Shown one piece after another: positions 9,001-62,251 of a stretch of 64,000 bases of DNA (its first letter is position 1; every line of letters starts with the position of its first letter). Origin of the DNA: Yuukianura sp. NJ FZ-2021 (Eukaryota). The position numbers were made by a program, and so were the translations under genes. The stretch is taken from positions 62,001 to 126,000 of the forward strand of contig CM102287.1 of the NCBI GenBank assembly GCA_046563655.1, given 5' to 3'. The notes under the pieces are model-generated. The model ran no database searches and was not told the DNA's origin. It was given only the letters and a program-made list of their open reading frames with translations.

Positions 9001-10702
9001 ACCAGTTATTCAGGTGTGCTTTATTGGAAGTGCAGGGTGGTTGTACGACATAAAAAATTATTTCCTAAAAATTCTAATCAAGATAACAAATAATGCGGAA
9101 TGTTTCATTTTGATTTAGACAATGTAATAATGGGATTTCCCCTGAAGTTCCATTGCCGTCTGAGTCATTGTGATTCATAGTGTCAAAATGAGTACTGGTT
9201 GGTATCTGTAGTGAGGACGAGCTTGTCATTTCACCGGCACTTCTACTTTGTGCTCAAAGATGAAGGCTGACAACAAGTGGTTTACCGTGTGTAATAGTCG
9301 TTGATGCACTACGACAAAGTGGACCGGTATTAGATGCGTTCCATGAAGATGGTTAGAAGCGCTAACAAGGCATAAATTCCATTTTTCAGTATGTTTAAAA
9401 CTTCGTTGTATAGTTCGCACATTAGTTTATACCAAAATGACAGTTAGATTTATGCACTTGTTGCATAGTGGAGTTGGGCTAAAATATAATTCCAGATTAT
9501 TGTTGAACACCAGTTATTCAGTTGTGCTTTATTGGAAGTGCAAGGTGGTAGTATGACATAAAAAATTATTTCCTAAAAATTCTAATCAAGATAACAAATA
9601 ATGCGGAATGTTTCATTTTGATTTAGACAATGTAATAATGGGATTTCCTCCTGAAGTTCCATTGCCGTCTGAGTCATTGTGATTCATAGTGTCAAAATGA
9701 GTATTGGTTGGTATCTGTAGTGAGGACGAGCTTGTCATTTCACCGGCACTTCTCCTTTGTGCTCAAAGATGAAGGCTGACAACAAGTGGTTCACTGTGTG
9801 TAATAGTCGTTGATGCACTACGACAAAGTGGACCGGTATTAGATGCGTTCCATGAAGATGGTTAGAAGCAATAACAAGGCATAAATTCCAATTTTCAGTA
9901 TGTTTAAAACTTCGTTGTATAGTTCCCACATTAGTTTATACCAAAATGACAGTTAGATTTATGCACTTGTTGCATAGTGGAGTTGGGCTAAAATATAATT
10001 CCAGATTATTGTTGAACACCAGTTATTCAGGTGTGCTTTATTGGAAGTGCAGGGTGGTTGTACGACATAAAAAATTATTTCCTAAAAATTCTAATCAAGA
10101 TAACAAATAATGCGGAATGTTTCATTTTGATTTAGACAATGTAATAATGGGATTTCCCCTGAAGTTCCATTGCCGTCTGAGTCATTGTGATTCATAGTGT
10201 CAAAATGAGTACTGGTTGGTATCTGTAGTGAGGACGAGCTTGTCATTTCACCGGCACTTCTCCTTTGTGCTCAAAGATGAATGCTGACAACAAGTGGTTT
10301 ACCGTGTGTAATAGTCGTTGATGCACTACGACAAAGTGGACCGGTATTAGATGCGTTCCATGAAGATGGTTAGACGCAATAACAAGGCATAAATTCCAAT
10401 TTTCAGTATGTTTAAAACTTCGTTGTATAGTTCCCACATTAGTTTATACCAAAATGACAGTTAGATTTATGCACTTGTTGCATAGTCGAGTTGGGGTAAA
10501 ATATAATTCCAGATTATTGTTGAACACCAGTTTTTCAGTTGTGCTTTATTGGAAGTGCAAGGTGGTAGTATGACATAAAAAATTATTTCCTAAAAATTCT
10601 AATCAAGATAACAAATAATGCGGAATGTTTCATTTTGATTTAGACAATGTAATAATGGGATTTCCCCTGAAGTTCCATTGCCGTCTGAGTCATTGTGATT
10701 CA
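1..10702. repeat. Satellite array, ~508-bp monomer, ~21 near-identical copies, continuing off the left edge
   Basis: The same sequence (TCCATTGCCGTCTGAGTCATTGTGATTCATAG...) recurs every 507-509 nt and stops abruptly at ...GTGATTCA (10702). Confidence 0.98.
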
Positions 10703-12750: not shown

Positions 12751-13479
12751 ATGTTCAGTCTAAAACTAGCAGCCATGGGAGACTTTTACGTGACTCTCCA
12801 GAGTGATTCTTCCTCAAATCATTATCCAGAAAACACAATTACAAATTTCAGAAATCATTTTGCCGAACCAATTCGATTAGATGGTGTAAAATACGAGGTG
12901 GCGTTAGTAGAGTGTACATATGTTCATCACGAGTATATGCTGCACAAGGAAGGGTGGCTTCGACAAGTTGGTAGCGGGTCAATCTTTGATTTGCTCAGCA
13001 TTTCCTCAGAAGACGCTGCATTGGTTCGGACAGCAGACGATCTTGCTAAACGTGTATCAGATAATTTCGTACAAATTGAAATTAGAAATTCGAGAGCCAG
13101 ATTTGTCAAGAAACCTGCCAAATCCTTTGTAAGGTTTAATGAAGAGGCTACTAAAATTCTTGGATATGATGAAGGAAAACAGAGTTTCGAGTATGAAGTT
13201 TTTGAGCCGAGTGGTCATACACAACTTTTCATTTACTGCAGTATAATTGAAAACCAACGTGTTGGAGGCGACCTTGCTCCACTGCTGAGAAAAATTTCAA
13301 ATACGGGAGATCACAAAAAGGTCGTGACACGCTCATTTCAACATCTCCAATACATAGACGTTGTATTTGACGATATTGACCATATATGGATGTACATCAT
13401 GACTGAATCTGGTGATCCACCAGCATTTACAGTCGGAACTTTTTCGGCAACTCTCCACTTTCGACGTAAGCGATACTGA
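12751..13479 (+). CDS. Minor capsid protein (penton, PX); start probably Met at 12775
   Basis: FYVTLQSDSS..YPENTITNF, YEVALVE and LFIYCSIIE..VG...APLLR motifs typical of Polinton mCP. Confidence 0.88.
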   Translation: MFSLKLAAMGDFYVTLQSDSSSNHYPENTITNFRNHFAEPIRLDGVKYEVALVECTYVHHEYMLHKEGWLRQVGSGSIFDLLSISSEDAALVRTADDLAKRVSDNFVQIEIRNSRARFVKKPAKSFVRFNEEATKILGYDEGKQSFEYEVFEPSGHTQLFIYCSIIENQRVGGDLAPLLRKISNTGDHKKVVTRSFQHLQYIDVVFDDIDHIWMYIMTESGDPPAFTVGTFSATLHFRRKRY

Positions 13480-13545
13480 GGGGTATAAAACCAGCACCAA
13501 CAAAAAATTTGCAATCATTAACTCTTCAAACGTCCAACTGTCAAC

Positions 13546-14001
13546 ATGTACAAGTGCAACTTGAGCGAGGAAGATTTTTTCAGAATTTACAATCCCCAGC
13601 GAGGAGGGGCTGTTGGATCAGACGGAGCTGTATTTTTTAAAGCCAATCAGTTTCGTCAGCGTGGTCATGGAATTGGCGGAATCTTTGGCTCAATTTTTCG
13701 AAAAGTTTTGCCATACGTAGCCAAATTTTTAATGCCTCATGCTAAAACTGCCGTCGCTGGTATAGCTTCTGATGTGATTGGAGGAAAAAAGTCTGTCAAG
13801 GAAGCTATTTCTGAACACGGCTCGACCGCCTTGAAAGGAGTACTTAAAGGCGTCACAGACGGTATTCTTTCTACTCAGTCTGGATCTGGACGTTCAAGGA
13901 AGAGGAAGCTAAACCAAACTATTGTCTCTAAGAAAAGGAAGCTAAACCAAACTATTGTCTCTAAGAAAAAGAAGCCAAGGAATATATTTGAAGAACAATG
14001 A
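13546..14001 (+). CDS. Virion core / membrane-active protein (cupiennin-like)
   Basis: QRGG, QRGHG-IGGIFGSIFRKVLP amphipathic helix, QSGSG followed by a basic tail with a 33-nt duplicated KRKLNQTIVSK. Confidence 0.75.
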   Translation: MYKCNLSEEDFFRIYNPQRGGAVGSDGAVFFKANQFRQRGHGIGGIFGSIFRKVLPYVAKFLMPHAKTAVAGIASDVIGGKKSVKEAISEHGSTALKGVLKGVTDGILSTQSGSGRSRKRKLNQTIVSKKRKLNQTIVSKKKKPRNIFEEQ

Positions 14002-15308
14002 GTTCCAAACACGCGCCTCACCCAGAAGTAGTTAGAAGTGAAACCGACATTTTCAGTGAACCAGAAATGGACGTTAGTCTGCAAAGTAGTGGAATGTTTG
14101 AATATCACCCCTTGTCTACCTTGAGCGAAAATGGAGGTCCAATTTCTTTTCAAGTGAAGGGCAATGACGTTCACTATGTGGATCTTAGTGAAACTTTGTT
14201 ATATGTTCGCTGTAAAATTTCAAAAGCCAATGAAGACCCACTCGATGATAGAGCTACCATGCGAATTGCTCCAGTCAACAACTTTTTACATTCCCTATTC
14301 CAGCAGTGCTCTGTGTTTCTAAATGAAACACAAATTACCCCCACAATGTCGCTCTATCCTTATCGAGCATACATTGAGACTGTGCTTGCTTATGGTGGAG
14401 ATTATAAGGATACTCAAGCTGTGACAGCTCTTTACTTGAGAGAAGAAGAGAATTTGAGTGACACGGACGCTTCCCACAAAAAGAGACAAGAATTGGCAAC
14501 CAAGGGGTTGGATATGATTGGACGACCGTTTGCAGACATCTTTGCTCAAACTCGCTACTTGATTCCTGGAATTGACATTAGAGTAACTTTCAACCGTTCA
14601 ACTGAAGAATTTGCACTACACTCTCAGACAGACAATACAAATCGCTACAAAATCAACATTACTGAAGCCAGACTTTTAGTTAAAAAACACACGCTTCTCC
14701 CGAATATTTTGAATTGTCATTTGAAGATGTGGGCTAGTGGACAGCCAGCATGCTACCCAATGCGACGAATTGAGATGAAAACGTACAGTCTACCCCTTGG
14801 AACTCTGTCAAATGTCAATGAAAACTTGATTAGTGGACTTACTCCCCGACAGAATTATACTTTGTCTAGTTCAAAGTGAGAAAATGAACGGAACGCTGAC
14901 TACAAATCCCATTTGACTTTAAGCCACCAGAGTTGAGACAAATTTCTGTGACAGCAAATGGAGAACAACTTTATACCATCAAGCCTACCAATACAACAGC
15001 AGTGATGGAGATGTTCGCGTTTCCTGAAGCATACTATGGCATGTTTAATGGACTTGGACTGAGCGCTAGCAATGAAGGACCTGCCATTAGCCTTTCCGAG
15101 TTTACAAATGGAAAAGCTTTTTTCATTTTTAACCTCAGAAACATGAATCAAGGCTACTGTCCTCCAAGACACGGCAGTATAAAAATTGTTGTCCAGTTTG
15201 CAAAAGCCATCACTGAAGCCTGGAACGTCATCTGTCACGCAGACTTTCAATCGACGCTCTATATTGACGAAGGAAAGAACGTGTTCTTCAAGGACTTATT
15301 CTCACTAA
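13998..15308 (+). CDS. Major capsid protein (double jelly-roll, PY), broken by single-base insertions
   Basis: SETDIF..P, EYHPLSTL..GPISF, YVDLSETLLYV, PVNNFLHSLF, YPYRAYIET. Frames rejoin as LPDRIIL..NPFDF after removing +1 insertions at ~14841, ~14910 and ~15297. Confidence 0.9.
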
Positions 15309-15836
15309 TGGACACTACTCAAAATTTACCAATTTCTATCAAATATGACTCGCGGAACAAGAGCATATTTCAATGTAATTCCATGCGACCTGCTGGCAAA
15401 GCTAACAATTGCTCGCTTTCCCAGCCTACTTGGTTGTAAACAACAAGCCTTCAAATCATCCTGGGGAACATTGGGTGGCAATCTACATTGGAGGCAGGAC
15501 TGGACCCAATCATCTTCTTTTGCTCTTATGGACTTGGACTGGACTTTTACCCGCTCGACTTTAGAAATTTTGTAAATAAGTTTTCATGTAAAATTTTGGA
15601 AAACACTAGACCATTGCAAGCTATTGAATTCTGATGTTTGTGGGCAATATGCAATTTACTTTTTGTATAAAATGATGCATGGCTGTTGTATTCTATCTAC
15701 TTATTGTCACTTTTCTCCCAATAGAAATTTAAATGATAAAAAAGTACGCAAATTTGTTACATTGAAAAATCATTTATTGAATTCAAAGTGTATATTTAAA
15801 CACAAAATAATAAATCAATGCTGTATAAAATTGTAA
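15308..15836 (+). CDS. Adenain-type cysteine maturation protease (frameshifted in this assembly)
   Basis: Reconstructed VVNNKPSNHPGEHWVAIY...FFCSYG...LQAINSDVCGQYAIYFL, needing four +1 corrections. ATG overlaps the MCP stop (TAATG). Confidence 0.88.
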
Positions 15837-15857
15837 AATTTTTTGTTGTGTTGAAAT

Positions 15858-16502
15858 TTATTCCCAATTGGCTGGAGTTTTCCACTCTTCCAGAAAGGTG
15901 TAATCTAATCGAGGCCGTTTCCTAGGGGAGCTTTTTCGAGTTTTTCCAGGAGTTGCCGAGTCGTCTTCATCAAAGTGGTGAAGATGTGTTTTTGGCAGAA
16001 GATCCAACGGAAATCCTTTTGAGGTTAAAAAGTTTTTGATTGGCTCGAGCTCAGCCTTTGAAATTTTGCATCTTCCATTTGACAATTTCTTTAGGATTGA
16101 ATCAAATGTTGAAAGTGGTAGTGATCCACCGTCAAATTTTACAACGCCGGAAGCTAGTGTTGCTCCATTGTCAATAAAAAACTGTAAAAGATGAACTCCA
16201 ACTCTAGTTCGGCCGCCAAAGTCAAACTTCTCATCTGGCTCAGGTGGTGTCTCCACTGATGATACGTCTACTGGCGGATCTGGTACAGCTTTAACAAGAA
16301 CATCTGATTTCTCACGTTTTTTCTTTTCTGCTAATCGTCGTAGCACATCTTGAAGTAACATGTTTTGGATTTCTTCCGAATCGTTAAGATTAAGCAAATG
16401 GTTTTTTTCAATTTCAAGTCGTTCAACTTCAGTTGGTTTTGAAGTTTGAGACATTAGACGCTCAAAGTCCTCATTGCTGATGACCTTCAATTTTGTGGGC
16501 AT
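15858..16502 (-). CDS. Polinton protein of unknown function (starts MPTKLKVIS)
   Basis: ~214-aa ORF whose ATG follows directly after the upstream ORF stop; basic C-terminus. Confidence 0.65.
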   Translation of the reverse strand: MPTKLKVISNEDFERLMSQTSKPTEVERLEIEKNHLLNLNDSEEIQNMLLQDVLRRLAEKKKREKSDVLVKAVPDPPVDVSSVETPPEPDEKFDFGGRTRVGVHLLQFFIDNGATLASGVVKFDGGSLPLSTFDSILKKLSNGRCKISKAELEPIKNFLTSKGFPLDLLPKTHLHHFDEDDSATPGKTRKSSPRKRPRLDYTFLEEWKTPANWE

Positions 16503-16504
16503 GT

Positions 16505-16840
16505 TTAAAACAGTTCGCCTAGAAGCTCTCCTATAACTGGAATTGCTGCGCCAAGTAACAACGGTAGGAATCCGCCTTGCTGAACAAGAAGACGACGCTT
16601 GTGATCTGCTCTTCCTCTGTGTGATATCAGACGTCTGATGTGCTCCTGGTGAGGAACAAGGCGTTTTATAGCTTTGGCTGGGATCTCCAAGCGGCCATTG
16701 TATACATTGTGAACGCATTCACAAATTGCACCAATTTGCTCAGGGCTTGCACAATTCAAATGAAAACCTCGTTTCTTTTCAGAACGAGAATTCAAGTTTT
16801 TTAGAAAATTGAGATGCTTGTCGATTTTGGTTCTAACCAT
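16505..16840 (-). CDS. Core protein with adenovirus pX-like C-terminus ('GasderminX'-type)
   Basis: EQIGAICECVHNV..G and QQGG/FLPLLLGAAIPVIGELL, an adenain cleavage site followed by a hydrophobic helix. Confidence 0.8.
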   Translation of the reverse strand: MVRTKIDKHLNFLKNLNSRSEKKRGFHLNCASPEQIGAICECVHNVYNGRLEIPAKAIKRLVPHQEHIRRLISHRGRADHKRRLLVQQGGFLPLLLGAAIPVIGELLGELF

Positions 16841-16859
16841 TTTGATTGCTGGAAAGCGA

Positions 16860-16899
16860 ATGATATAAATTGCGCTGTACAGTGCCCTTTTATATCATT
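16860..16899. promoter_or_regulatory. Candidate bidirectional core promoter
   Basis: ATGATATAAA-N20-TTTATATCAT inverted repeat in the 65-bp gap between divergent ATGs (16840 and 16906). Confidence 0.6.
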
Positions 16900-16905
16900 T
16901 ACACA

Positions 16906-17829
16906 ATGGATCTGAAACAGCAATGGCTAGACACCTCGTTGCCTGGAGGCTTCTCTGGAGCGGCTGGGTTTCAAAAAGATTCAAAAACTAAGGCATCTCT
17001 ACACCGTGTCAAGAAAATTTTGAAACAAATTCCAAGCTATCAACTCCATCATCCAGTACGATATAAGTTTCCTCGTCGTCGGGTTTATGTGGGAGGTATG
17101 CATGAACAGTACTGTGCAGACTTGAAGGACATTCAAAGCGTATCAGGAAGTAACAATAAGAAGAGGTACTTGCTGGTGGTTGATTGATGCATTTTCAAAA
17201 CAAGCCTGGATCGAAGCAATTCCAAACAAGACGGGGCCAGTAACTCTTGCCAGCATTCGAAAAAATTTTACAAGCGAAGTGGTGGAAAACCTAGATGTTT
17301 GCAAGTAGATGAAGGTTCTGAATTTTTAAATAGACACATGAAAGCTTATTTGAAGCGTGAAGATATCAAACTCTTCTGGACACATTCGCCACTAAAATGT
17401 GTCATTGTGGAACGTTTTATTCGAACACTATTTATGAAAATTCAGCGCTACTTGACACACTACAAAACAAAAAAGTTTGTTGATAAATTGTCCGATTTTG
17501 AAAATCTGTACAATCATGCTTATCATCGAAGCATCAAGATGGCGCCATGTGAAGTGACTAAAAGAAATGAGGATAAAGTACGCCAAAACTTGTACCCAGA
17601 AGTAGCAGTAGACTATAAAAAGCCAAAACTCAAAGCAAACGATCTTGTGCTTGTTGCCAGAATTAAAAAAACTTTTGAAAAGGGCTACTCGACAAACTAT
17701 ATTGACGAACTTTATCGCATTGTAAGGATTAAAGCGACTAAACCATACGTTTACAAGTTAGAAGATCTCGAGGGCACCCCTATTCTGGGTAGTTTTTATG
17801 ACAAGCAACTACTGAAATTGGACCAGTAA
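16906..17829 (+). CDS. Retroviral-like (rve) integrase, frameshifted near 17180-17280
   Basis: PGGFSG, YQLHHPVR..FPRRRV, YCADLKD, QVDEGSEF, IVERFIRT, YNHAYHRSIKMAP, FEKGY, GSFY. Confidence 0.92.
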
Positions 17830-18101: not shown

Positions 18102-19025
18102 TTAGTCGTTGACATAAACATAACAATTTTCGGGAAAAATGCTACTTCTAATTCGATAGTCGTCCTTTTGTGATTGAGTCAGATCAATTAAAAGATATCC
18201 ATAGGGTTTCGCCATGCTTTCCTTGTATGCCAGATCCATTGTCGCGTTCTTCTTTCCTCCATTCATTTGTCTTCCAAGACAGGAAACAAAAGCCGAGTCT
18301 CGTGGATTCTTCATCAGTACCAAGTACTGGCAATTGAGTGTAATTTCTCTCAAGTTTTTATGGAAAAAGTTTTGAACCAAGATGATCAGCGACACATTTC
18401 GGTGATGAGAAGTTCTCGTAAATGCTGCTCCGACTTCTCCCTTCTTTCCAGCCTCGTGCATCAAATCGTCTAGAACCATGATCGAAGGTCGATCTGATCC
18501 ATCGTGCCATTTCTCGGGCAGCCCTTGAACAAACTGAATGCCAGGGATTTTAGCTTTAAGTTCTCCAAAGAGCCCACTCTGCCACTCCGTGTAACAATAA
18601 GTTACATTTGCAATTCCACTTGAAGTTTTTACAATTTCATTTCTTCGAATCAAAATTTCCTTGACGAGTGTGCTTTTTCCCGTGTTTGTCATTCCGCTCA
18701 CACACATTGTAAAAGGAGCCACAAGTTGCAAGTCAATCTCATCACCAGAGCGTGGATGCTGAAGTAGAGCGCGGCTCCCCCAACCCGTCACCATGGCGGC
18801 GGCGGTGGTGGAGCCCCAGGGCTTTGCGGCGGCGGCGGCGGCGGCGGTGGAGTCCCAGGGCATTGCGGTGGCGGCGGCGGCGGCGGCGGCGGTGGGGGCG
18901 GCGGCGGCGGCGGTGGGAGAACCCAACAGTAATGCTACCGAGAGACATTTTGAACAAGTTTTTTCATGACGTTTAGCAACGTCTAAACGAGAAAATAAGT
19001 TTCCACAGCGAGAGTATGCACTCAT
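18102..19025 (-). CDS. A32/FtsK-like genome packaging ATPase with an N-terminal Zn-finger-like segment and poly-Ala linker
   Basis: Walker A GMTNTGKS, Walker B IMVLDDLM, SHHRNVSLIILVQNFF, KNPRD, PYGYLLIDL. Confidence 0.93.
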   Translation of the reverse strand: MSAYSRCGNLFSRLDVAKRHEKTCSKCLSVALLLGSPTAAAAAPTAAAAAAATAMPWDSTAAAAAAAKPWGSTTAAAMVTGWGSRALLQHPRSGDEIDLQLVAPFTMCVSGMTNTGKSTLVKEILIRRNEIVKTSSGIANVTYCYTEWQSGLFGELKAKIPGIQFVQGLPEKWHDGSDRPSIMVLDDLMHEAGKKGEVGAAFTRTSHHRNVSLIILVQNFFHKNLREITLNCQYLVLMKNPRDSAFVSCLGRQMNGGKKNATMDLAYKESMAKPYGYLLIDLTQSQKDDYRIRSSIFPENCYVYVND

Positions 19026-19155
19026 AGTTCAAAGAGCAAATGACAAATAAACTTCAACTTCAGGAATGCTTTGTTTTTTTATATACAAAAATTTTTTATT
19101 ATACAAGTATTTTAAAACTTTTTTTTAAATTTATTGTAACTTAAAATAAAAAATT

Positions 19156-22100
19156 TTATTTTGGAATGTCTTTATGACCAAAAGCTAAAGTGTTTACATT
19201 ATCTACAGCGTATCTCTTGGTGTCCAATCCGTTGAGAGCTTTCTTCATGGTGACCTCTGTGAAAATTCGATGTTCGACGCTTCTGAAACCGCGCATGGTG
19301 ACCATAGTCTGAACATTCTCCTTGAGGACTCGCTCATAGTCTTCAAACTTGACTTGGCCGTTAACAGCTGTTTTTGTGATTCCCTTTGCCTTCTTGGTAT
19401 ACTCATCTTTCAGGAGCCATTTACCATCCGGCGTCTTTTGGAATTCTCCTCCGACTTGCGCTACCTTTAGGGCTCGAATTGTGTACATCTTTGGCCGCGG
19501 GCAGTAGACATGAGTGATCACCGATCCGGCAGTCTCGTCCTTGAATTTTCCCAGAACTTTCTTATTTGTCGGATCGTGAAATCTTCCAAACTGCGGATGA
19601 TTTTCTGGGTATTCACTCATATCGTAGTGCTCCCTTTGCTGCAGCATGTCTTCATAAACGTCATTGGTCTGGATGTGATAGATGAATGAATCTGAAACAA
19701 AATATTATTGAAATATAATCAAAAACTGAAAAGCTAAGACTTGAGAGTTAATAAAGTACCTGTGTCAGTGTAAATCAGACGGCACTTGTCGCCATATCGA
19801 TTCTGCATCACCGCTCTGTGATGCCGATACATAATACTTTTAGCAAAGTCCAAAATGCTGACTCCTGTGAAGATTGGCTTGTTGAGGGTGACTTGAAGCC
19901 GTTTCATCATGAAAATACATGTTGTTTCGTTAATGGGGATCACATTTTGAACAGTAGGCTTCTTGTTGTAGTACAGCGCCTTCTCCATTGTTGTGACTAC
20001 CCGAACGTTTTGTCGTTTTCTAACTTGCTCAATGGTTTTACCGAAAGCAGAGTTGTTGAGCAACTTCCAAAAGTCCTTGGCGAAATCGCTCGTGGCCTTC
20101 TTCCTCATTTCAGTATTAAAGTCGATGAATCCCTTCATCCATGGGCCTTGAATAAAAGAAATTCCACGGTGGACCTTTGTAACCTTGGCTCCCATTTTGA
20201 GGTATTCTTTAAGCACCTCCTGGTGCAGAATGTAGTTTTTCTTGTTATTTAGATCTGCAACCAGCTTTTTGACTTTGAAAAGTCCAGGGCCTGACTTGAG
20301 ATCCTGTAAGAGTTGATTTTGATGTGCAGAGAGCTCTTCCATTGGAACAGTTCTTGCAACTGGGGCTGGAGGGTAATCATTTAATATGTCGTGTAGACTC
20401 TCATCAATTTCCAAATCAACCTCCAACATGTAGCCAATCGTTTTTGTCGTTTCAGTTTCGGCGACAAAATCGTCGATATTGCTGGAAATTTTCTCGATTT
20501 CTTCTTCGGTGAGCCATTTAAATTGACCAAGAGGGAGCGCAATACTCATCGACTTGCCCTACAAATATCATAATTGTGAAAACTGAAACAATAAATTTAA
20601 CTCTATAGACTTACATATAAGTTGTTGGCATCAATGTAAAGAATGTAAAATAACGCTTTCGTTGGATCGAATTCATCACCCATATATGGATTGTTGGCGA
20701 CGGCTTCCCGCCTAGAGCCAACACTGACATAGCCGCCTATAACAGAAATTTATTAGAAATACTTCAATATAAATTTAACACAATTTTCTTACCTCGAATT
20801 CCGTGTTCTATCCAGCAATGCATCGTAGGATCGGTGATCAAGTCTAAGACGACCCCTGATTTCTTGAGAACACAGTCCATCGCCATCATTGGCAGGGAAA
20901 AATAATGGCCCAGTTCCAGCCCGTAACTGTCCATCATCAGCTTCCGAACACCTTCCATCACGTCAGCTAGAAGGGACACGTCCAGACGAACGTAGAGGTC
21001 ATGCCACTCCCCCATGTTTTGAATGTTAAAACTCTTCCAAACCTCCTTCGCATGATTGTAAACAGCGTCTTGAATTGGTGTTTCGGTCATGTCATTGAAG
21101 AACGCTTCTTTTGGAGGTAAACTTGTCATCTCAAAATCTTGGCATGACGTCATCAGTGAATATGGGTAAGCGCCCTTCTTGAAGAGAAGATCAATGTTAG
21201 CACCTTGATCAACTTCACGCTGAAACTCTTGTCTAGTTATGTCAAATTTGGCATTTGGGTCTTTGCGCATAACTTCAACCAGTTTGTCCAGTGATTTTAG
21301 AGTGAAGCCGAGACTGTCGGTGAAACGGAGCTTGTATTTCTCCCGTCGTCTCACGTTTTCTCGCGTGATCTCCTCCTCTACGTTTTCTTCTTCGCCCGAA
21401 CGTTCCGGTGATACGGTGACACACAAATACTTCTCGCTACTCTTTGGGATCACTTCAACGTGACTGATGATTTTATCTTCCGTTAGCTTTCCCATGGCCT
21501 GAATCAAGAAGTGCACGTCGTAAGATGAGAAGTTGTGTAGAAAGACTGGGAACTCTTTTTTAATTTGAGCCTGGAGATTGCAGTCTTGATGAGCCATGCC
21601 GATATAGTTGAATGGAGGGAGATGGGAATGATGACGCACTTTCCAGTCCGTCTTCTCAAAAAGCTTCTCACAGAAACAGCAGAAACGTGCAGTCTTTTTC
21701 TCTTCTCGCTGTCTGGGAGTCATGTTTCTTTCCAGCATATCAGGAGCAATTCGCTCATACTCGTCCACTTCTTCGCCGAGGGTTTTGGAGAAACGAAGGA
21801 TGCTTTCCATGAAATGTGCAGCAATGTCTTCATCGTCTTCTGTGGCATGATAGTACTCGCCATGGCGGCGCTTCCCCTCAAAATCCACACAAACCCATGC
21901 ATAACCACAGGGCTTGTGTGTATGCGTACAACGATGATTTTCTGTTGGCTTACTTTTAATCCCAGTGACTCGTTCTTTAAGTTTTCGACGCTCGTCTTCT
22001 TGTTCGGCTGAGGCATGAAACTTTGCTAGAAAAGCTTCGAAATCAGCGTAGAATCGAAAAGGGACTGGCTGAGTTCTAGCCCACTTGTTAAAGTAAAGCT

Positions 22101-23613
22101 CGTTTTCATTTTCTTTGGGATAAGTCACTTTCTGCAGACCAAGGGCAGCACAAAATGGTTTATGCTCTTCCAGAGTTTTTGGCTGTTGGAAATTGGAAAG
22201 GCAGTTGCGACAAATATGCTTCATTCTGTGGTCGTTTGGTGCTCGCATGAGTGTCTCGAGATTTCGAATTAAAACAAAATGAGCGTTGTTACCTTTCATC
22301 AGACACATTAAATCAACATGAATGTCCTTGTTTTGCTTTGAATTGTATAGGATGGAGATGTTGCTTTGGATATACTTGAAAAGCTCCAAGTCTTCCATTT
22401 TTGACTTCTTTCCTTCTCTTCTCTCTGGAGCTGACGGTACGTCCATGTCATAACCAAGCACAGTCACGGAAATGCCGGGGTTGAGCGCTTCAAATTTCGG
22501 GATTTGCTCGAGAGTCATTGGAAAGTGAAGCCCCGTAGTGTTGACCTTGTGACCGTGTGGCGCGTATGTCTTCACTAGCTTATCAATTCTGTGGCGGTTT
22601 TTGTTGCTTGAGGGTACTCCAGCGATTTTGTCATGTGCAAGCACAGACCAGAGGAAGCACTTGTTATGTGAATTCGTTATTGAGATTTCGCTGTTGTCGA
22701 TATTGAGCAGTGACTTTTTGTGCTCGGACAGCGGAAACGGTGTCTCAATATAAGTTCCCACTTTAGTAAACTGGTACTTGGCAGTTACGAACCTGAATTC
22801 TGATATGTAATCAAGATCCCACCCACTTCCTTCATGGGTAAAGTCTTCAATCTGATCAGACATTTCATGACACATGATTGACCACACACGAGGTAATGAC
22901 GCTGGGGTAAAGACAAGATGGCGATAAGAAGTAAATCCTGCATCCTTGGTGTCAATACTGCCATCTGCATGTGTTTTTGTGAAGCGACATTTCATGGAAA
23001 AGAACACTCTCGCATTCTTCCACTTTTTGAGATCATTTTCAATGTTGTCAAACGATGATTGCTGTACACTGTTGAAAAAGTCACGCTCATCGAATCCGCT
23101 ACCACACTGGAATTTCTCAAACTCTGCCAAGTACTTTGTACACATATTAAGGGAAGTAAGAACAGGCTTCACCAAAATTAGTTCTATAGCCGACGGCTGA
23201 AGTCCTCCAGTTTGCACACTATAAAAGTCTGGATGCACATTGTGGAAATGTTCTTGAAGTTTGTCTCGACAGTTGAACGATAAACCACAAGGTGGACACA
23301 AAAGTTCTCGATATACTTGAAGGATTTCACGGTTTACTGGAAGAGAGGCAGGTTCCTGGAAATCTTGATCATGACGCTCCATGAAGTGGTGGTCCAACTC
23401 TTCTTGAGCGAAGAATCCAGCAAAACAAACTGGACACTCGAAATCCGCCATTTTACCACAAGGTAACTGACGAAAGTCTTCGTCATGGCTGCTAACATGT
23501 TCTGCCAAGTCTTTTTTCTTATAGAACTTTACGCCACAAATGGGGCACTCGTGATTCCTGACACAAATTTGCTTTGACGAGCCAGCTACTGGAGATGCTG
23601 AACGCTTTGACAT
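19156..23613 (-). CDS. Protein-primed family B DNA polymerase, 4 coding exons: 23613-20793, 20736-20615, 20558-19760, 19691-19156
   Basis: ExoI YADFE, ExoII HNFSSYD, ExoIII YVRLDV. Splicing restores IRGG, YIDANNLYGKSM and YTDTDS; KLLNNSAFGK present; N-terminal C2H2 fingers. Confidence 0.93.
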
Positions 23614-23726
23614 CTTTAGAAATAGTGAAAATAAAATAGTTAGTAAAAACATAACCTAACATTTGGTTCTAACCTTTATAAATAGTTAAATACTTTAAAA
23701 TGCTAAAATCGTTCTCGGGCATTTGA

Positions 23727-24508
23727 TAAGTAGCTTCCGCTACTTAATCGCCACGTTTTCACTAGCAAAACGCTTTACGAACAGATGTGCGAACTACAAT
23801 AACAATAGAACATCGTAAAGTAGCTTCCGCTACTTAACAACAACAACCTCGTTTTTGTTGAAATACATGCCTGATGGACAGACGGAGAATCAAGACAATT
23901 AAGCAGCTTCAGCTACTTTATAACCAGTCCTGTGTTGGTTAGTAAAAAGTTAATTAAAAGAACACTTAAATGCTTTATGGACAGATGGACAGACAGACAG
24001 TTATGCCTTGAAGTAGCTTCCGCTACTTTATAACTACGTTCTGTATTGTTTAGTAAAACGTTAATTCAAATAACGCTTAAATGCTTTACGGACAGACGGA
24101 CAGACAGACAGTTAGGTCGTAAAGTAGCTTCCGCTACTTTATAACTACGTTCTGTATTGTTTAGTAAAAAGTTAATTCAAATAACGCTTAAATGCTTTAC
24201 GGACAGACGGACAGACAGACAGTTAGGTCTTAAAGTAGCTTCCGCTACTTTATAACTACGTTCTGTATTGTTTAGTAAAACGTTAATTCAAATAACGCTT
24301 AAATGCTTTACGGACAGACGGACAGACAGACAGTTAGGTCTTAAAGTAGCTTCCGCTACTTTATAACTACGTTCTGTATTGTTCAGTAAAACGTTAATTC
24401 AAATAACGCTTAAATGCTTTACGGACAGACGGACAGACAGACAGTTAGGTCTTAAAGTAGCTTCCGCTACTTTATAACTACGTTCTGTATTGTTTAGTAA
24501 AACGTTAA
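23727..24508. repeat. 111-bp tandem array with an AAGTAGC-TTCC-GCTACTT hairpin and GACA/GACG microsatellite in each unit
   Basis: Hairpin starts at 24011, 24122, 24233, 24344 and 24455; degenerate copies at ~23728, 23818 and 23901. Confidence 0.92.
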
Positions 24509-24608
24509 NNNNNNNNNNNNNNNNNNNNNNNNNNNNNNNNNNNNNNNNNNNNNNNNNNNNNNNNNNNNNNNNNNNNNNNNNNNNNNNNNNNNNNNNNNNN
24601 NNNNNNNN
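24509..24608. other. Assembly gap (100 N)
   Basis: Run of N. Confidence 1.
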
Positions 24609-25014: not shown

Positions 25015-25239
25015 GGAGAGACTGGAGGTCAATAAAAATAACGCCAAAAAACGTTTTGTTGACATGGCAACGACTGAAAATTTAGAATTTACACCCTACG
25101 TAATCACGCAAAACCCGAACGGGTGTTCCTTACAATTGAAATTTTGTGCAACAAATGAAAACACACCAATCACAGCGATAATCCCATATTCTAGCTTATG
25201 TAACTTGCATTTTTTACATAAGACATAATACAATAATAT

Positions 25240-25385
25240 AATACAATACATAATACAATACATAATACAATACATTATACAATACATAATACAATACATT
25301 ATACAATACATAATACAATACATAATACAATACATAATACAATACATAATACAATACATAATACAATACATAATACAATACAATT
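25240..25385. repeat. 12-bp minisatellite (AATACAATACAT)n, ~12 copies
   Basis: Read directly. Confidence 0.95.
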
Positions 25386-25435: not shown

Positions 25436-28125
25436 CTATATGTTTTCAGGAACCTCATCGGTTGACTTGCGCTTCCTTGCGGCACGTGACTTTTGAATTG
25501 CTTCGAGTCTGTAGTTGGGTTGTTTGATGGGCATCGACCGTGCGACTCTTGAGTTGACGATCTCTGGCCCCAAGTCTTCCTGATAGAATTTGAGCAGCTT
25601 GGAGGTCATCTTGTCCCACATGCAGCCAGTTGCATCGTCACGATAAATTCGTTCTATGTAGAGCGGGAAGTCGATTATGCCCTTAGAGGTGTTCCGAAAG
25701 GAGTAGACTATAAAGTCGCACCACTGCCTTCCACTGACATGCAATTGCATTACGATTTGTCTAGAGGAAAATATAAAACAACTCAAGACCGTAGACTTAA
25801 CATAATTCGTAAATACTCTGACATTCGTTAAAGACGTACCGATAGTACTTGTGATTTTTTTTCAATTCCAAAACGTTCACGCTCCCAGAATCTGTTGTGC
25901 TTGAAGCCAGTCCTAAGAACGAAGTCTTTTTCATTACTGACGGCATTTCTTTTGGAGCAAATCCAATCATGGATTGTGGGCATTTCACTTCGATGATGCC
26001 ATCGTCCCCAACCAATCCATCCGGTGAAGCTGCAAAGACCCCATGCTCGAGACTGACAAAAAGACCAGACGGTTTGACAGCGACATTTCGTTCTCTCTCA
26101 TATGCGCGTATTGCCGACGCTTCGAATTTCTTGCCGTGTGTAATCGCTGGAAGGTGTGACAACGACTTTGGGTAGAGTAACTTCGATACGACAGACGAGT
26201 TATTCGTTGAGTCCTTGAGAGAGAATACATCTCCTGCTACTGATGCTGTTATCCTTCCAGATCTCTCTACCGCCCATATTTCGCATTCTGATTGAAGTGT
26301 TGTACATTCAAGAATTCTGATCTGTTGCTCTTTGCTGACATATTTGCTCTTCATTAGCTCCGTAACCTGATCCCGAACAGTATCATCATCAAAGTCTTCA
26401 TCAGCTGCATTTGGACCGTAATCCGCATCGGGTTGATACGAAATCTTGGGTTTGCAAGTCTTCTTCAGCTTGTGTTTGCTTTTCTGCGCGGTTTGTAGCT
26501 TCTTTCCAGCAGTTACTGCGGCTGCTTTCCACATTCTAGAGGGACTCCGATTTTTCAAAGTTTTATATGCCTCAGCATAAAAACAACTTCCTTTATTGAA
26601 GGAAAGGCCAGATGTGGAGGCTTTGACTTTCCATCCGCCCCTCTGGACGACATTCAACCGCTTCCCATGATTAAATTTTGCCACTCTGCTCATAAACGAC
26701 TCACAAATGTTCGATGTTAAGTTTGGCATGAGTCTTGCAGAAATTGAGCCAATCTGTTTGAATCGATGAACAACATCACTCCAGAGGGATTTATCTCGTA
26801 GCTCGGCAAACTGGTTTTCCTCATTGGTTGATCCAGAGCAGAAGTATGAAGCGCAATTGTTGTGTTGTCCAAATGTATGAAGTGGAATGTTTTCAATGTC
26901 CTTCCGCAGGAGGCTATCGTTTCTAGGTGATTCTTGACTCCTATAATTTATTGCAGCTCGAAGTGATTTTCCCATTCTGTGCATCTGCGATTTCAAGATC
27001 TGACGTTCTCTAAGACTGTACATTTTGGTTGCCTTTGTAGCAGCAATGCAAAACTTGTTCAAGTTCTTGACGATGTGATTAATGCATTCAGCCTTTTGTA
27101 TTTGTACTCCTGGGTAGATTTGTGAGTTAACCAAAGTATGATAAACTGAGGAATCACCATCAGCGATGAGAGTCTTGAAAACGAGGCCATGCATTTCAAT
27201 ACTTTCTCTGAAACCTTCCTGTATAATTCGTGATTCCATAACAGTTGCGCTGACAGTTTCGTCCCAGTTCTTGTAGCACACGTGCTCCTTTGCTGTTTGA
27301 CCGGAGGTGCTGGCTCTCTTGCAGACGATGCAGAACATATTTTTAATTCCAATGTAAAGTAGTTTCTTGCTTCTGGCACCAATCAGTACTGCTACACCGC
27401 CCTTGGATTTGAACGAATGGCCATAGGATCTAGTACACCAAGCACCATCAGCATACACTGAAGTACACGGGTATGTCACTCCATTGACAGCGACCTTGTC
27501 GTTAGCAGCTTCAGCTAGTTCCACTTCTATCTTCCCGTTTTCAATGATCTGCTCTGCTAGTACTTCATCCCATTGCTTTGTCAATTTTTCCAAATGCCTG
27601 CTATAGGTTTTGAATGCCGGAAAGGGAATGTCCATGACTGTCATAAGTTGCTTAGAAGCTTCGAAGTTACTTGCTCCAGCGCATGTTCCCCATACAAGAC
27701 TTTCGTTCACCGGTAGAGTTACCCCGTCTTCTTCCTTATCAGACACAATCCAGTTCTTCCATTGACAAGAGGTGCAGCGGACTAACAAACGGCTCCGGAG
27801 ACCCATCCTTGTTTCCTAAAATTAACTTTCATGTATGCGTCATAAAAATCGAACTGTGATGTACTCTTACTTTCTCAAACACAAGTACAGAGCTAGAACA
27901 AACTTTTCCGTGCGAAGAAGCAGTATTCATTGACAAGAGCCATTGCGAAACGGTTACAATTCGCCTCCCACAAATACTTGGCGGATCTGGGACACCAGGA
28001 GTCACGATTGTTGAAGACGGATCATCAACTTTTTCAAGGTTTTCATTGTCTCTCCATTTCTTGTAACCGAGTTTGAGTGAATTTGCGGACTTCCTCGAAT
28101 GAAAACGCTTGCGTTGTCTCCCCAT
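25436..28125 (-). CDS. DDE transposase (Mutator-like/Kolobok domain) fused to a YqaJ lambda-exonuclease-like domain; introns 27816-27870 and 25761-25839
   Basis: ADGAWCTRSYGH, C..C..H.C.KNW, ADGDSS, ECINH, CESF; then W...RSGRITAS, HG..FE, ASPDG, IEVKCP. Splicing gives HKYYRQIVMQLHVSGRQWCDF. Confidence 0.88.
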
Positions 28126-28617: not shown

Positions 28618-29402
28618 GGTACTGTATTTGTAAATAAGTTAAAAATTTTCAACATGAACTATAATTATACTGATTTACTGGTTAGTGTATCAAGATACCG
28701 TTTCATTTCGACAAAACGGTACTGTATTTGTAAATAAGTTAAACTTTAAACATGAACTATAATTATACTGATTTACTGGTTAGTGTATCAAGATACCGTT
28801 TCATTTCGACAAAACGGTACTGTATTTGTAAATAAGTTAAATTTTCAACAGGAACTATAATTATACTGATTTACTGGTTAGTGTATCAAGATACCGTTTC
28901 ATTTCGACAAAACGGTACTGTATTTGTAAATAAGTTAAAAATTTTCAACATGAACTATAATTATACTGATTTACTGGTTAGTGTATCAAGATACCGTTTC
29001 ATTTCGACAAAACGGTACGGTATTTGTAAATAAGTTAAATTTTCAACATGAACTATAATTATACTGATTTACTGGTTAGTGTATCAAGATACCGTTTCAT
29101 TTCGACAAAACGGTACGGTATTTGTAAATAAGTTAAATTTTCAACATGAACTATAATTATACTGATTTACTGGTTAGTGTATCAAGATACCGTTTCATTT
29201 CGACAAAACGGTACGGTATTTGTAAATAAGTTAAATTTTCAACATAAAATATAATTATACTGATTTACTGGTTAGTGTATCAAGATACCGTTTCATTTCG
29301 ACGAAATCGTACGGTATTTGTAAATAAGTTAAATTTTCAACTCAAACTTTAATTACAATGACTTATTTGTTAGTGTACCGTTTCATTTCGGCGAACCGGT
29401 AT
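28618..29402. repeat. 98-100-bp tandem array, 8 copies, inside the transposon
   Basis: Unit starts at 28618, 28718, 28816, 28914, 29014, 29112, 29210 and 29308; each has a TACCGTTT...AAACGGTA hairpin. Confidence 0.95.
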
Positions 29403-30273
29403 GCGTCTCATGATTAATTATTATGTCCCAATGATTACTTATTATGTTTTATTATAATTCTGCTGATTATCGATTGCCTCCATGTTCTCAGAAAAGGGGA
29501 AACTAGTTATACACAAAACCTCCACCAGATACCAGTATCCATCTAACTGTCAATTAGCTCCGAACTGTAGAGGCATCCGTGTCACAAGGGATGCTCACCT
29601 CTATTCTATGTTTTGCCTGGACTCCGAATCCATCCCTTGTCCAATGTCCAGTCCAATCCTAGGCTCATTTACATTCCACATGGTATAGTCGAGGTCAAGT
29701 GGTATGTCACTCTCCAGTGCAGTGTCAGCTATCGATACTGCAGCAGCACCTTATACTTTTAGTACTCAACATGCATGGTATGACGTCCCAGGGACAGAGA
29801 GCAGAGGTACAATATCATATCATGAGTCTAACATGGGCAATGACAGAGATCTGAAGGGTCCTGAGGGCCCTTCGTGATCATTTGGTGTGTTAGTATTTGC
29901 TCTATTCTGCTCAAATTACTCAATGTGACCTTCGAAACCGTCTATCAGAATCTAACCATGGGAGCAAACACAAAGAAAGAGTACCTGAAGTAACGATGAC
30001 CGACCGGCTGGAAACGAAGGTGACGACGGTGACACTTGACCTTTGGAAATGATGACTGGAATGATGACAAGAGATTGATGACGGGACACAAACTGACAAC
30101 TGACAGACGACGACGAGAGAGTGAATGAAAGAACAAAGAACGAAACTGACTTCTTTTGAATTTTCAAAATCAAAATTCCCACTATATTCTCAACTCGCCC
30201 CAGCTTACAGTTACGCAGTCTGTAAACAGTAAACTGTAAACAACAAAATCATGAACTTTGACCCATTCTTCTA

Positions 30274-30577
30274 GTGCACTTCCTGCGTGATTGGTACGAC
30301 GCTCAGAAAACTACGACCACACTTTTCGCATTAGCATACGCTGCTAATCAATGCAGCAGGCAGTTTTTTTACGAATTTTCAGATGCTTTGCCGTAGGAGG
30401 CACAGTAAGGCAAAATTTCATGATTTCTCAAATATCTTCCAGAAATCCTTTGATTTCTGGAGGAAAGGTTAAGTTTTCATGAAAAAGCTGTCCGCTGTGT
30501 TAGTTAGCAGCGTCTGCTACTACAAAAAGTGTGGTCGTAGTTTTCTGAGCGTCGTACCAATCCTGCAGGAAGTGCAC
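30274..30577. repeat. ~90-bp imperfect inverted repeat (nested MITE or subterminal fold-back)
   Basis: GTGCACTTCCTGC.TGATTGGTACGACGCTCAGAAAACTACGACCACACTTTT and its reverse complement ending at 30577. Confidence 0.85.
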
Positions 30578-30626
30578 GAAAAGCACTACAGAAAATCGTA
30601 TCTAAGCGAATTCCTCCAACCAAGTC

Positions 30627-31718
30627 TTAAAGTTCATCCAAATTGAAGAAAACCACTATTTTCTAAAAGAGGCTAGACTAGAACGGAAGCAAATGAAATT
30701 ATATTTCAAACTAGAAGTTCAAATACTTTAAACTCTAACGTTGTTGCAAACATTATAAGGATGGGGTTAACCTTTCAAGAGATTCCCCAAATTTTAATTG
30801 ATAAAATATGCATTCAAAACAAGGTTATTTTTCCAAAACCCTTACGTATTCTCGAATCACTTCAAATTAAGTCGATTAACGATGTTGCAAACTTGCGAAC
30901 AAATGTTGCTCAATTGCCAATTAATAAACAACGAATTGTCAACAAAGAATTGGAACTCTTTGAAAAACAACTCGACGATTTTAAGAAAACTCTGAAACTA
31001 GACGCAGAACATGTCTCTTTTAAAATTAAACACCCAACAAGTGAAAATGACGTTTCATTTACTGACAATAATCAGTATCTTGGAGCCATTTTCACCAAGT
31101 TTCGCATAGAGAAATTTTCTCCAAATTGACTTGCAGAAATTAAACTCAAAGAAATGGGAGAGACTTAAGAATGACCTCTTACCTTTCAACTTTAAGTCAA
31201 ACGTGTGGAAACTTTGGCATAATGCTCTCATTTCGTTTGACATTGCTCAAAGAATGGGTTTGTGTAGTAATGGACGATGTCCTTACTGCAACGAAAGGGT
31301 CACGAATTGTACTCACATAATCCACTGTAAGTCAACGGATAGTTTATGGATATATGTACAAAAATTAGTAAGCAAAGTAAACTTAAAGCTTTCTTCCTTT
31401 GATAAGGTTTTCGGGACTAACGATAATCTAGCAAATTTTCTAATTTTTTGTTGCTCTAATATATTATATAATAGATTTATTTATAATATAAATTCAGGCA
31501 AAACAAATTACGATCTGTTAGTTAAATATAAACAGTTTTTGTATCAAACAATTTATATTAACTACATAAGTGCTAGAAGTAAGAATCAAGTGGAAAAATT
31601 TGAAAACACATGGTGCAAAAATAACTTAATCTCTGTGAATCCAATTTTGAAAATTAGCTTGTAGTTTAAAGTTTTCGACAAATAAATAAATCATTCTCTT
31701 CAAAAAACAAAAAAAAAA
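30627..31718 (+). pseudogene. LINE ORF2 3' end with zf-RVT domain, polyadenylation signal and poly(A) tail
   Basis: WKLWHNAL...CPYCNE..TNCTHIIHC...LW; in-frame stops; AATAAATAAA then an A-rich tail at 31702-31718. Confidence 0.85.
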
Positions 31719-34900: not shown

Positions 34901-35813
34901 ATGGAGGCATACTGAGTTTCGTCATCTTCCGAACTGGAGGATTCGGATCCACTGGACGCCCAGTAAGAATCGTCTGAGTCGTCATCCCCATCGTCCTGGA
35001 CAAGAAAGTTATTAAATTACGTTCCTATTGAAAACGTCTAGTAATCTCAGCCTTCTTACCTTCACTTTCGCCGGCTTCTTTGTCTTAGATTTCACTTCAG
35101 GTTCATCTTCACTCTCGCTGGATACGTCTGGTTCAACTTCTTTTTCTTCTTCAAAGTCATCTTCCTCCAGTAGTTCCGGATTCTCACGGAATTTAGCAAG
35201 AGCTTCCTCGTAGTCCTTGTTATATTTTCGAAGCTTCTGGCGCAGAGTACCCAGACTCTTAGCCTTGTCCTTTGGCATCTTTGCATTGTTTTTCTTGTTC
35301 TCCCATTGTTGGTCTACGTAAACTTGAAGCTGGGCGAGAGTACGCAAGATAAAAGTTGGCGTAACCCCCTTCTCTTCCTTGGCAATCACAGGTAGTGCCT
35401 TCTGATGAGCTTTTACCAGATCTTCAAAACCTATAGACCATTCAAAAAAATTATTAAGCGTGCTAAGTTAAGTAATCTGCTGCACTAAAGAAACAAAGGC
35501 TTACAGTCAAGTAAATTGGGAACGTCGTTGATCTTCCGGTAGTTCCGTATCTTTTTGACAATTCCCATGATTTCTTCATATCGCTTCTCCTTAGCAGACC
35601 GGACAATTCGCTTTCCACTTTCTTCTTCTTCATCACTCAACTGCCAAACCCAAATAATTAGAATACATTTAGATTGTCTTAAGGCTAGACAGAGCTTCTT
35701 ACATCATCGTATGCTGTGGTTATAGCCGGCGCCTTCTGGATCTGGGGTTCCTCATCTGATGAAGATTCCGATTCAGAATCAGATCCCCTCGCATAAAAAC
35801 GAGAATGGCTCAT
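31997..35813 (-). CDS. eIF3c: Eukaryotic translation initiation factor 3 subunit C, multi-exon host gene
   Basis: [74 protein letters not shown]...[21 protein letters not shown]-domain C-terminus; many GT-AG introns. Confidence 0.96.
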
Positions 35814-47400: not shown

Positions 47401-48316
47401 GCCCAAGGCAGTGACGCTTCATTGTTCCCAACTCCAAAATTTCATCTTCGTATAGTGCACATAGTACGCTCAATTGAAAGCAGTTGGAATTGGTATTTAT
47501 CGACAGCAGTCCGCGCCTGCGAGCCAATTCCTTTGGAATCGGAATGTAGCCCCGCCCCCGAACAACTGGATTCCACTGACCAATACCAATGTGGAGAGAA
47601 CGTAGCCGCAGAATCTGCCAATTGCTTCCGTTTTCTAGGTATAAGTTGAGGGCGTTGATGATGTATACACAAGAGTTTGTAACCACCCTTGAAATGAAGT
47701 CTGGATGAGAGAGGGGCATGAAGGGTGCTCCGATGGCGTCTCCGAGGTGAATGACATTGTGTGTGACCTCAATCATGTCAGCAATTAAAGTAAAGTTGAC
47801 TTTGACTCCGCTGAACTGCCCAATCACTGACTTCAGCAGCTTCCTGATGGGAAAGTCGAGGTTTTCAAAAACCGAGAGTACTTGACATTCGGTGGGTGGC
47901 TCAACGGGTGCAGAAAACAACTTCAGAGTCCCCTTCAGAGCATGCCGGATTTCTTTAAAAGGACGAATGTCCACCGTAGCGAGGTCATTGTTCGCTGTAC
48001 GGCCCATGCCTCTCTGAGGACAGGTTGGACGGTGAAGACTAGCCTCATCAAAGTACCCTCCACAAGAATTACAGCTATGTACCTGCATCAAAAGTGAAAC
48101 TTTCACATCTTTCCGCATGCCAGTACTAAGAGTAATGTCTTACAGTCTCCACATGGATGGCCATGGCCTTGTAGGTCGTGCATTTGAAAGTGCAGTGCAA
48201 CGTAGCACTTTGATAACCGCAACTAAACTACAAATAAAATTTTTTGTGAAACAACAATACTAAGATGACTTAGAATTTTTTTTTACCTCAGCTGCCCGTT
48301 TATTTGGAAAACTCAT
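44452..48316 (-). CDS. Divergent, catalytically degenerate pPolB-like protein; introns 48228-48286 and 48083-48143; one frameshift near 45385
   Basis: Collinear with Polinton pPolB (NGSNW, YIPIP, NCF..SVL, GIIG, GYLFEVDLEY, KLLNNSLYG, KAGGI, SLPFGD), but motif A reads YAGINSCY and motif C reads MTHTDS. Confidence 0.85.
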
Positions 48317-52794: not shown

Positions 52795-52826
52795 TTTGAA
52801 AGGAAAATGAAATGAACGAAATGAAA

Positions 52827-56585: not shown

Positions 56586-56708
56586 TTTTCTTTTCTAGGG
56601 GAATGAAAAGTTCCTAAATATTCTGAAGCTGTCCTACCACTTAACTACCTTAACTACCTAATTTCCCGCCTCCGTAATTCTATATGAGTAGTTAATTAGT
56701 GGTGCGTT

Positions 56709-62161: not shown

Positions 62162-62251
62162 ACCCTTTTGAAACGGGCGTAATACCTTAAGCAAATCATA
62201 TACATACAACTTTAAGTATAGATCCAAAACCAGAAAATAAATTCTTGGATT

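Follow-up and report, generated by a model that had tools for sequence, protein, structure and literature searches.

The window analyzed here, i.e. the whole stretch of 64,000 nucleotides (nt) comprising positions 62,001 to 126,000 (forward strand) of contig CM102287.1 in the NCBI GenBank assembly GCA_046563655.1 of Yuukianura sp. NJ FZ-2021, contains an element of the Polinton/Maverick type. Its gene for a family B DNA polymerase of the protein-primed type spans positions 23613 to 19156 on the minus strand (all coordinates are those of the window) and is very probably divided into four exons by three short introns. From its 5' end to its 3' end, the gene comprises the following features:

20793..23613, minus strand: exon 1, with the start codon, N-terminal C2H2 zinc fingers, the exonuclease motifs and the N-terminal part of the polymerase
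20737..20792, minus strand: predicted intron 1, 56 nt, phase 1, GTAAGA...CTAAT...TTATAG, 17.9% G+C
20615..20736, minus strand: exon 2, 122 nt, ..GYVSV...YIDANNLY, with the first half of motif A
20559..20614, minus strand: predicted intron 2, 56 nt, phase 0, GTAAGT...TTTGTAG, 23.2% G+C
19760..20558, minus strand: exon 3, 799 nt, from GKSM... through motif B (KLLNNSAFGK) up to ..LIYTDT and the first base of an Asp codon
19692..19759, minus strand: predicted intron 3, 68 nt, phase 1, GTACTT...GTTTCAG, 23.5% G+C
19156..19691, minus strand: exon 4, with the last two bases of the Asp codon, SFIYHIQ... and the stop codon (19158-19156)
19130..19135, minus strand: polyadenylation-type hexamer AATAAA, found by reading, about 20 nt past the stop codon

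When joined, the four exons amount to 4278 nt, i.e. 1425 codons and a stop codon, with no internal stop or frameshift. The motifs Exo I-III and Pol A-C were identified by reading, and all catalytic motifs of the polymerase are intact. In Pfam, exon 1 matches zf-C2H2 and DNA_pol_B_2 (PF03175), the latter, on this exon alone, at 22.3 bits, under the cut-off of 25.8. Used as a query, the same exon retrieved 227 homologues at E <= 0.001, the best of them 49-50% identical; the homologues carry PF03175, and the sources named among them are spiders, a beetle, corals and a sponge.

All three segments that separate the exons start with GT and end with AG, and they do so at exactly those positions at which their removal restores both the frame and the conserved motifs. 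Intron 1 splits a Gly codon before motif A (..HGIR-G|GYVS.., exon 1 ending in ..HGIR and the first base of this codon), intron 2 lies between two codons inside motif A (..DANNLY|GKSM..), and intron 3 splits the codon of the catalytic Asp of motif C (YTDT-D-S). The motifs rebuilt in this way, GIRGG, DANNLYG and YTDTDS, are those of the family, as was seen when the query was aligned with 11 homologues. By reading, the 3' ends of all three segments are T-rich and close in TAG or CAG, and intron 1 exhibits a branch-point-like CTAAT 16 nt from its 3' end. The sequence-only reading that preceded this work had reported GT-AG segments of 56, 56 and 68 nt at 20737-20792, 20559-20614 and 19692-19759, and both the coordinates and the joints proved exact; its placement of the predicted introns in the catalytic core of a Polinton polymerase is likewise borne out, with one of them before motif A, one inside motif A and one inside motif C.

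The segments also stand out by their composition, with 17.9, 23.2 and 23.5% G+C vs 42.7-44.5% in the exons of the polymerase. A scan of the gene for 56-nt windows with at most 25% G+C identified three islands only, which coincide with the three introns, while none of the 4058 windows composed exclusively of exon sequence reached this level (minimum: 28.6%). None of the segments has a length divisible by three, and stops occur inside them; reading on from exon 1 into intron 1, for example, leads to a stop at 20766.

Several other types of insert were considered and discarded. An intein, i.e. an in-frame protein insert, is ruled out by the lengths, which are not multiples of three, and by the stops inside the segments. 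There is no sign of a self-splicing intron, a mirtron or a structured RNA: the fold energies of the introns are no better than those of shuffled sequences (z-scores 0.56, 0.60 and -0.09; no stable RNA fold was found in any of the three), and a search of Rfam with positions 19000-24000 returned no match at E <= 1. A common origin of the three introns, or their membership in a family of introners, is also unsupported: their pairwise local similarity is not significant when compared with shuffles (p = 0.04, 0.14 and 0.08, uncorrected), and the 64-kb window contains no other copy of any of them longer than 17 nt.

Comparative support for the exon borders comes from the homologous proteins; for this purpose the peptides encoded by the exons were located in the best 120 of the 227 homologues. 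Tblastn searches of the window with these 120 proteins gave four collinear pieces for each of them, with breaks at the intron borders. The end of exon 2 and the start of exon 3 were found exactly adjacent in all 115 homologues in which the junction could be measured (5 lacked a pair of high-scoring segment pairs, HSPs). All 86 homologues measurable at the next junction had exactly one residue, which corresponds to the split Asp, between exons 3 and 4 (28 gave no pair and in 6 the HSPs stopped short of the exon end). Between exons 1 and 2 there were no residues in 111 homologues and one residue in 5 (3 were short and 1 gave no pair). Altogether, every measurable junction is contiguous to within one residue (115/115, 86/86 and 116/116). 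The two closest proteins, P0007 (746 amino acids (aa), from a contig of 2454 nt) and P0008 (1339 aa, from a contig of 5077 nt), which share 49-50% identity with the query, are single open reading frames (ORFs) that run over the junctions, and their genes must be uninterrupted, because the contigs barely exceed the length of the ORFs.

Related DNA gave the same picture. A search of viral contigs with a single protein identified no locus, while an alignment-based search identified 30, all in contigs of IMG/VR; together with one contig from a metagenome collection (36% identity) they make up a set of 31 loci, whose polymerases are 33-41% identical to the query polymerase. In 26 of the 27 loci that could be measured, the equivalents of exons 2 and 3 directly adjoin each other (0 nt); the remaining one, L023, shows an in-frame difference of 213 nt within a variable region. 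The equivalents of exons 3 and 4 are exactly one codon apart in 27 of 28. A single stop-free frame extends across the whole span in 29 of the 31 loci; in the other two (L030 and L031) the frame shifts by 1-2 nt, with no insert of the size of an intron. Since the 29 loci and the 120 homologues are continuous at the same sites, the segments in our gene are lineage-specific insertions. No related locus is close enough (33-41% identity) to date their gain. In this comparison with related Polintons, to which the sequence-only reading had pointed, no relative shares any of the three introns.

As a yardstick for the introns of the host we used the eIF3c gene, which is located at ~32.0-35.7 kb of the window (32072-35650, minus strand; 66-68% identity to the best named matches, which are from insects, and 86% to a transcript-derived protein). 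The eIF3c matches put the host among the pancrustacean arthropods, although the proteins searched include no named one from a close relative. With the transcript-derived protein as a guide, seven introns of 93, 71, 320, 83, 96, 81 and 92 nt were delineated, so that this gene has at least seven short introns; these seven, from one gene, constitute our whole host sample. They have 24-41% G+C, donors of the GTAAGT/GTGAG type and T-rich YAG acceptors. The polymerase introns resemble them in style, but are shorter (56-68 vs 71-320 nt) and more AT-rich (18-24% G+C); introns 1 and 2 have donors that conform to the host pattern.

We regard it as very probable that the gene belongs to an adintovirus-like element of the Polinton/Maverick type residing in the genome of a pancrustacean arthropod, that it encodes the family B DNA polymerase (protein-primed) of this element, and that three short GT-AG introns of the U2 type divide its coding sequence. 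With a similar degree of assurance we classify the three segments as canonical spliceosomal-type introns by sequence criteria; their excision is predicted in silico, and the expression of the gene, its actual splicing and the time of the intron gain are likewise what we infer from the sequence.

Around the polymerase gene, the element contains further genes, some of them candidates, of kinds typical of Polintons/Mavericks:

18105..19028, minus strand: packaging-ATPase-like ORF, an open frame with Walker A; Pox_A32 match at 16.7 bits, under the cut-off of 22.8
16909..17826, plus strand: rve-type integrase, with 10 homologues of 36-47% identity over ~300 residues
15340..15840, plus strand: adenain-type cysteine protease, spread over three frames
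13998..15300, plus strand: probable double-jelly-roll major capsid gene, in two frames (13992-14876 and 14900-15436)

The ATPase-like ORF showed weak tblastn matches in five of the related loci, and the matches in L036, L048 and L040 fall on ORFs that score with Pox_A32. Its N-terminal part (18780-18930, minus strand) is occupied by a long repeat of the GCC/GGC type, which would encode poly-Ala in the open frame and poly-Pro or poly-Arg otherwise. The homologues of the integrase follow a single frame between 16909 and 17811, apart from ~80 nt (about 17183-17265) that are out of frame and in which the main frame contains a stop; judged from the alignments, this patch is bounded by two compensating frameshifts. 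In the protease, frame 1 carries the segment with the catalytic His, frame 2 the middle part and frame 0 the segment with the catalytic Cys. A profile built from 10 related protease ORFs of the related viral contigs matched the three pieces collinearly in these three frames (profile positions 55-72, E = 0.0018; 68-113, E = 0.0025; 113-131, E = 0.00016; 14 pieces searched).

In the probable capsid gene, a profile of six related ORFs, built from the viral loci, gave weak matches to the first half in frame 0 (positions 22-166, E = 1.5e-4) and to the second half in frame 2 (positions 351-407, E = 0.076), and Atlas provided double-jelly-roll-like leads, to be taken as leads only, for both halves. 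Neither half has a match in Pfam, the ORFs of the capsid module gave no tblastn match at 1e-3 in the 30 viral loci, and no capsid homologue was found among proteins of 518 aa and up, a length band that probably excludes a capsid protein of ~440-480 aa. An intron that would join the two frames was looked for by reading and rejected: the only frame-compatible GT-AG candidate is not AT-rich and lacks a pyrimidine tract, and there is no island of low G+C at this place. The element further comprises two small minus-strand ORFs and additional ORFs back to ~11 kb, of which 12751-13476 and 13522-13998 are open. The sequence-only reading had described the other genes of the element as intronless, and indeed no AT-rich GT-AG island comparable to those of the polymerase was found to interrupt any of them; that reading, however, passed over the frame breaks in several of these genes.

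All frame breaks of the element genes are confined to a stretch of 2.4 kb (14.85-17.27 kb), and none of them is a nonsense substitution. The patch at 14850-17270 may represent either real decay of one stretch or a locally poor assembly; the latter is possible because the frame breaks are clustered and include no nonsense substitution, but it is countered by the fact that the other long ORFs of the window are clean (gag, pol and the env-like ORF of a Ty3/gypsy element, a Mutator-like transposase, and the exons of eIF3c). No terminal inverted repeats of the element were found. It is flanked by a 508-nt satellite on one side and, on the other side, by a 111-nt tandem repeat followed by an assembly gap of 100 N, and because of these borders an end of the element may be absent from the assembly. 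The satellite array occupies positions 1-10700 of the window with at least 21 head-to-tail units, mostly 95-100% alike, and ends where the Polinton-derived region starts; the 111-nt repeat (5.5 copies, 23901-24608) runs into the gap at 24509-24608. Judged from its sequence, this copy of the element is probably not autonomous, given the broken frames of its integrase and protease and the failure to find terminal inverted repeats.

The simplest view of these data is that a germline-resident Polinton lineage acquired introns and that the copy in the window is now defective. The polymerase gene would be transcribed in the nucleus by RNA polymerase II, the host spliceosome would excise the introns of 56, 56 and 68 nt, and only the spliced mRNA would encode the complete enzyme of 1425 residues, since translation of any transcript that keeps an intron would end ahead of the palm domain or in it. 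Such elements copy themselves as DNA, and a copy in the germline that has acquired introns would hand them on to its daughter copies. Most likely, the three introns were gained within the element lineage, or in this very gene, while the polymerase was under selection, given that three gains with full signals suggest a gene that was functional and selected at the time. Several observations weigh against this view. The donor of intron 3 (GTACTT) is unlike, and weaker than, all seven host donors sampled, and the lengths of 56-68 nt fall below the range of the seven host introns (71-320 nt). None of the three introns was found in any relative examined, and for this reason the splice sites enjoy no comparative conservation. 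Our sample consists of one copy of the intron-bearing gene, and the expression of this copy is not assured, because the element that surrounds it is defective.

The best of the alternatives, which we nevertheless consider unlikely, is that the host has kept the polymerase for its own use, and that introns of the host type were gained in place while the genes for the capsid, the protease and the integrase decayed. The polymerase has no disabling lesion in 4278 coding nt and has retained all its catalytic motifs, vs at least five frame breaks in its neighbours (two in the integrase, at least two in the protease and at least one in the capsid gene). If lesions were spread uniformly over the ~10 kb of coding sequence, such a split would have p ~0.02-0.07 (by hand arithmetic), which weakly favours domestication, and the lack of the introns in every relative agrees with it. 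The lesions, however, are clustered in 2.4 kb (about 14.85-17.27 kb) rather than spread, and the polymerase is not uniquely spared, because open frames are likewise seen at 12751-13476, at 13522-13998 and in the ATPase-like ORF. Moreover, the polymerase gene is still located within its element, beside the ATPase, and no orthologue is known in other species, the best proteins being 49-50% identical. If such a domestication had nonetheless occurred, an animal would be employing a protein-primed polymerase for a cellular function.

That the segments are junk insertions in a dead pseudogene, intron-like only by chance, appears very improbable to us, even though the element is defective (an integrase with an out-of-frame stretch and a stop, a protease in three frames, no terminal inverted repeats found) and though Barreat & Katzourakis 2021 (PMC8097293) interpreted short 'introns' called by Genewise in vertebrate Mavericks as insertions. 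Chance would have to explain why GT and AG stand at exact frame- and motif-restoring sites in three segments out of three, with T-rich 3' tracts and a roughly host-like size and composition, why the frame of 1425 codons is otherwise free of stops and frameshifts, and why no confirmed lesion in the other genes of the element is an AT-rich insertion. Equally little credence is due to the idea of regulated gating, in which retention of the introns would be controlled, for instance by tissue, so that host splicing would switch the production of the polymerase and the replication of the element. With any one of the introns retained, the protein would end ahead of the palm domain or in it (translation continued into intron 1 terminates at 20766), and the donor of intron 3 is weak, as is often the case for sites of regulated splicing. 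However, the introns lack stable structures (the z-scores given above) and any match in Rfam, and the copy in the window is probably unable to replicate by itself. The claim of the sequence-only reading that replication is gated by host splicing is accordingly without support beyond the trivial dependence of the enzyme on splicing. Our preference remains with introns gained in a germline-resident Polinton lineage.

The window contains a number of further features. A second gene for a protein-primed polymerase, at 44455-48139 (minus strand), is very divergent (~25% identical to the first one) and shows C2H2 and Endonuclease VII-like matches; introns are absent from the corresponding positions, and the frame changes once, near 45375. 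Two unrelated polymerase lineages are thus present within the same 64 kb. An open ORF of 672 residues at 25800-27815 (minus strand) combines a Mutator-like transposase (E = 3e-70) with a C-terminal YqaJ-like viral recombinase/exonuclease (E = 1.8e-12), a pairing that is unusual for a Mutator-like element. A retroelement of the Ty3/gypsy type (54432-62251, minus strand) has open gag (535 aa) and pol (1337 aa, with reverse transcriptase, RNase H and integrase), as well as a downstream ORF of 721 aa with a signal-peptide-like start, possibly env; downstream of this element, the ORF 51886-52836 contains a dUTPase domain. Inverted arms of 108 nt (30268-30583), 84% complementary and 100 nt apart, adjoin the ORF 31110-31661 with a zf-RVT match and possibly belong to a small foldback element. 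Two simple repeats were also noted: positions 25223-25382 form a microsatellite of 12-nt units, and positions 28618-29377 contain 7.7 copies of a 98-nt unit in tandem. Besides eIF3c, the host is represented by an ORF for a matrixin-type metalloprotease (62556-63686, minus strand).

A Polinton lineage with a spliced polymerase would score as broken or truncated in surveys that assume intronless genes. The expectation of the sequence-only reading that ORF-based surveys would misjudge this gene agrees with published practice: both the gene caller used in PMC10120064 and the definition of intactness in PMC8097293 presuppose genes without introns. Because such surveys presuppose uninterrupted ORFs, arthropods could have more intact or potentially active elements than are counted, and lineages of this kind could be absent from polymerase trees. 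Three independent gains of introns in catalytic motifs would also imply that a functional polymerase gene had long resided in the germline under nuclear conditions, a suitable setting for the study of adaptation to the rules of host gene expression or of domestication. The surprise is a moderate one, since the splicing of genes of DNA viruses and DNA transposons is well known.

A familiar case among DNA transposons is the P element of Drosophila, whose transposase gene contains spliceosomal introns, the tissue-specific retention of the third intron being an established means of control. As in the P element, the production of the enzyme in our case would depend on host splicing; the enzyme, however, is a polymerase rather than a transposase, and the control by intron retention is a feature of the P element.

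With regard to its own family, the polymerase shares with those of animal Polintons/Mavericks (adintovirus-like elements) both the sequence family and the order of domains (N-terminal zinc fingers, Exo I-III, Pol A-C), and the gene neighborhood of such elements is matched by the putative A32-like ATPase, the rve integrase, the adenain-type protease and the probable double-jelly-roll capsid gene. It differs from these relatives in its three introns, vs 29 intact-frame related loci that are intronless at the same sites, and in that no terminal inverted repeats were found here. Core genes of this group have been regarded as free of introns: Bellas et al. 2023 (PMC10120064) chose a prokaryotic gene caller for a large survey of protists, endogenous viruses being, as they put it, genomes that 'do not contain introns'; intact Mavericks were defined by intronless ORFs in the study of Barreat & Katzourakis 2021 (PMC8097293), which reported those of vertebrates to be intronless, in agreement with the original description; and in nematode Mavericks the core genes were called intronless and the cargo genes intron-bearing (bioRxiv 10.1101/2022.07.12.499685). 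Our literature searches did not turn up any animal Polinton with a description of spliceosomal introns in its core genes, although exceptions may have been printed, for instance in the founding papers.

Introns within elements and viruses of related kinds have been described. In integrated maverick/polinton-like proviruses of dinoflagellates, introners have been reported (Mob DNA 2025, PMC12166617); as here, intron sequences reside inside polinton-like elements, but those introners form repeated families in protists, while our three introns are mutually dissimilar and have no other copy in the window. A parallel for the gene itself (PMC7019647) is the family B DNA polymerase gene of chloroviruses, in which some lineages of these viruses, though not all, have a short spliceosomal intron of 101 or 86 nt. 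In both cases a short intron of the spliceosomal type, a predicted one in ours, lies within a viral family B DNA polymerase gene and is restricted to a lineage. The chlorovirus example, however, concerns a giant virus of algae with one intron, whose splicing was shown experimentally, whereas ours concerns an integrated element of an arthropod with three predicted introns, two of which are located inside catalytic motifs.

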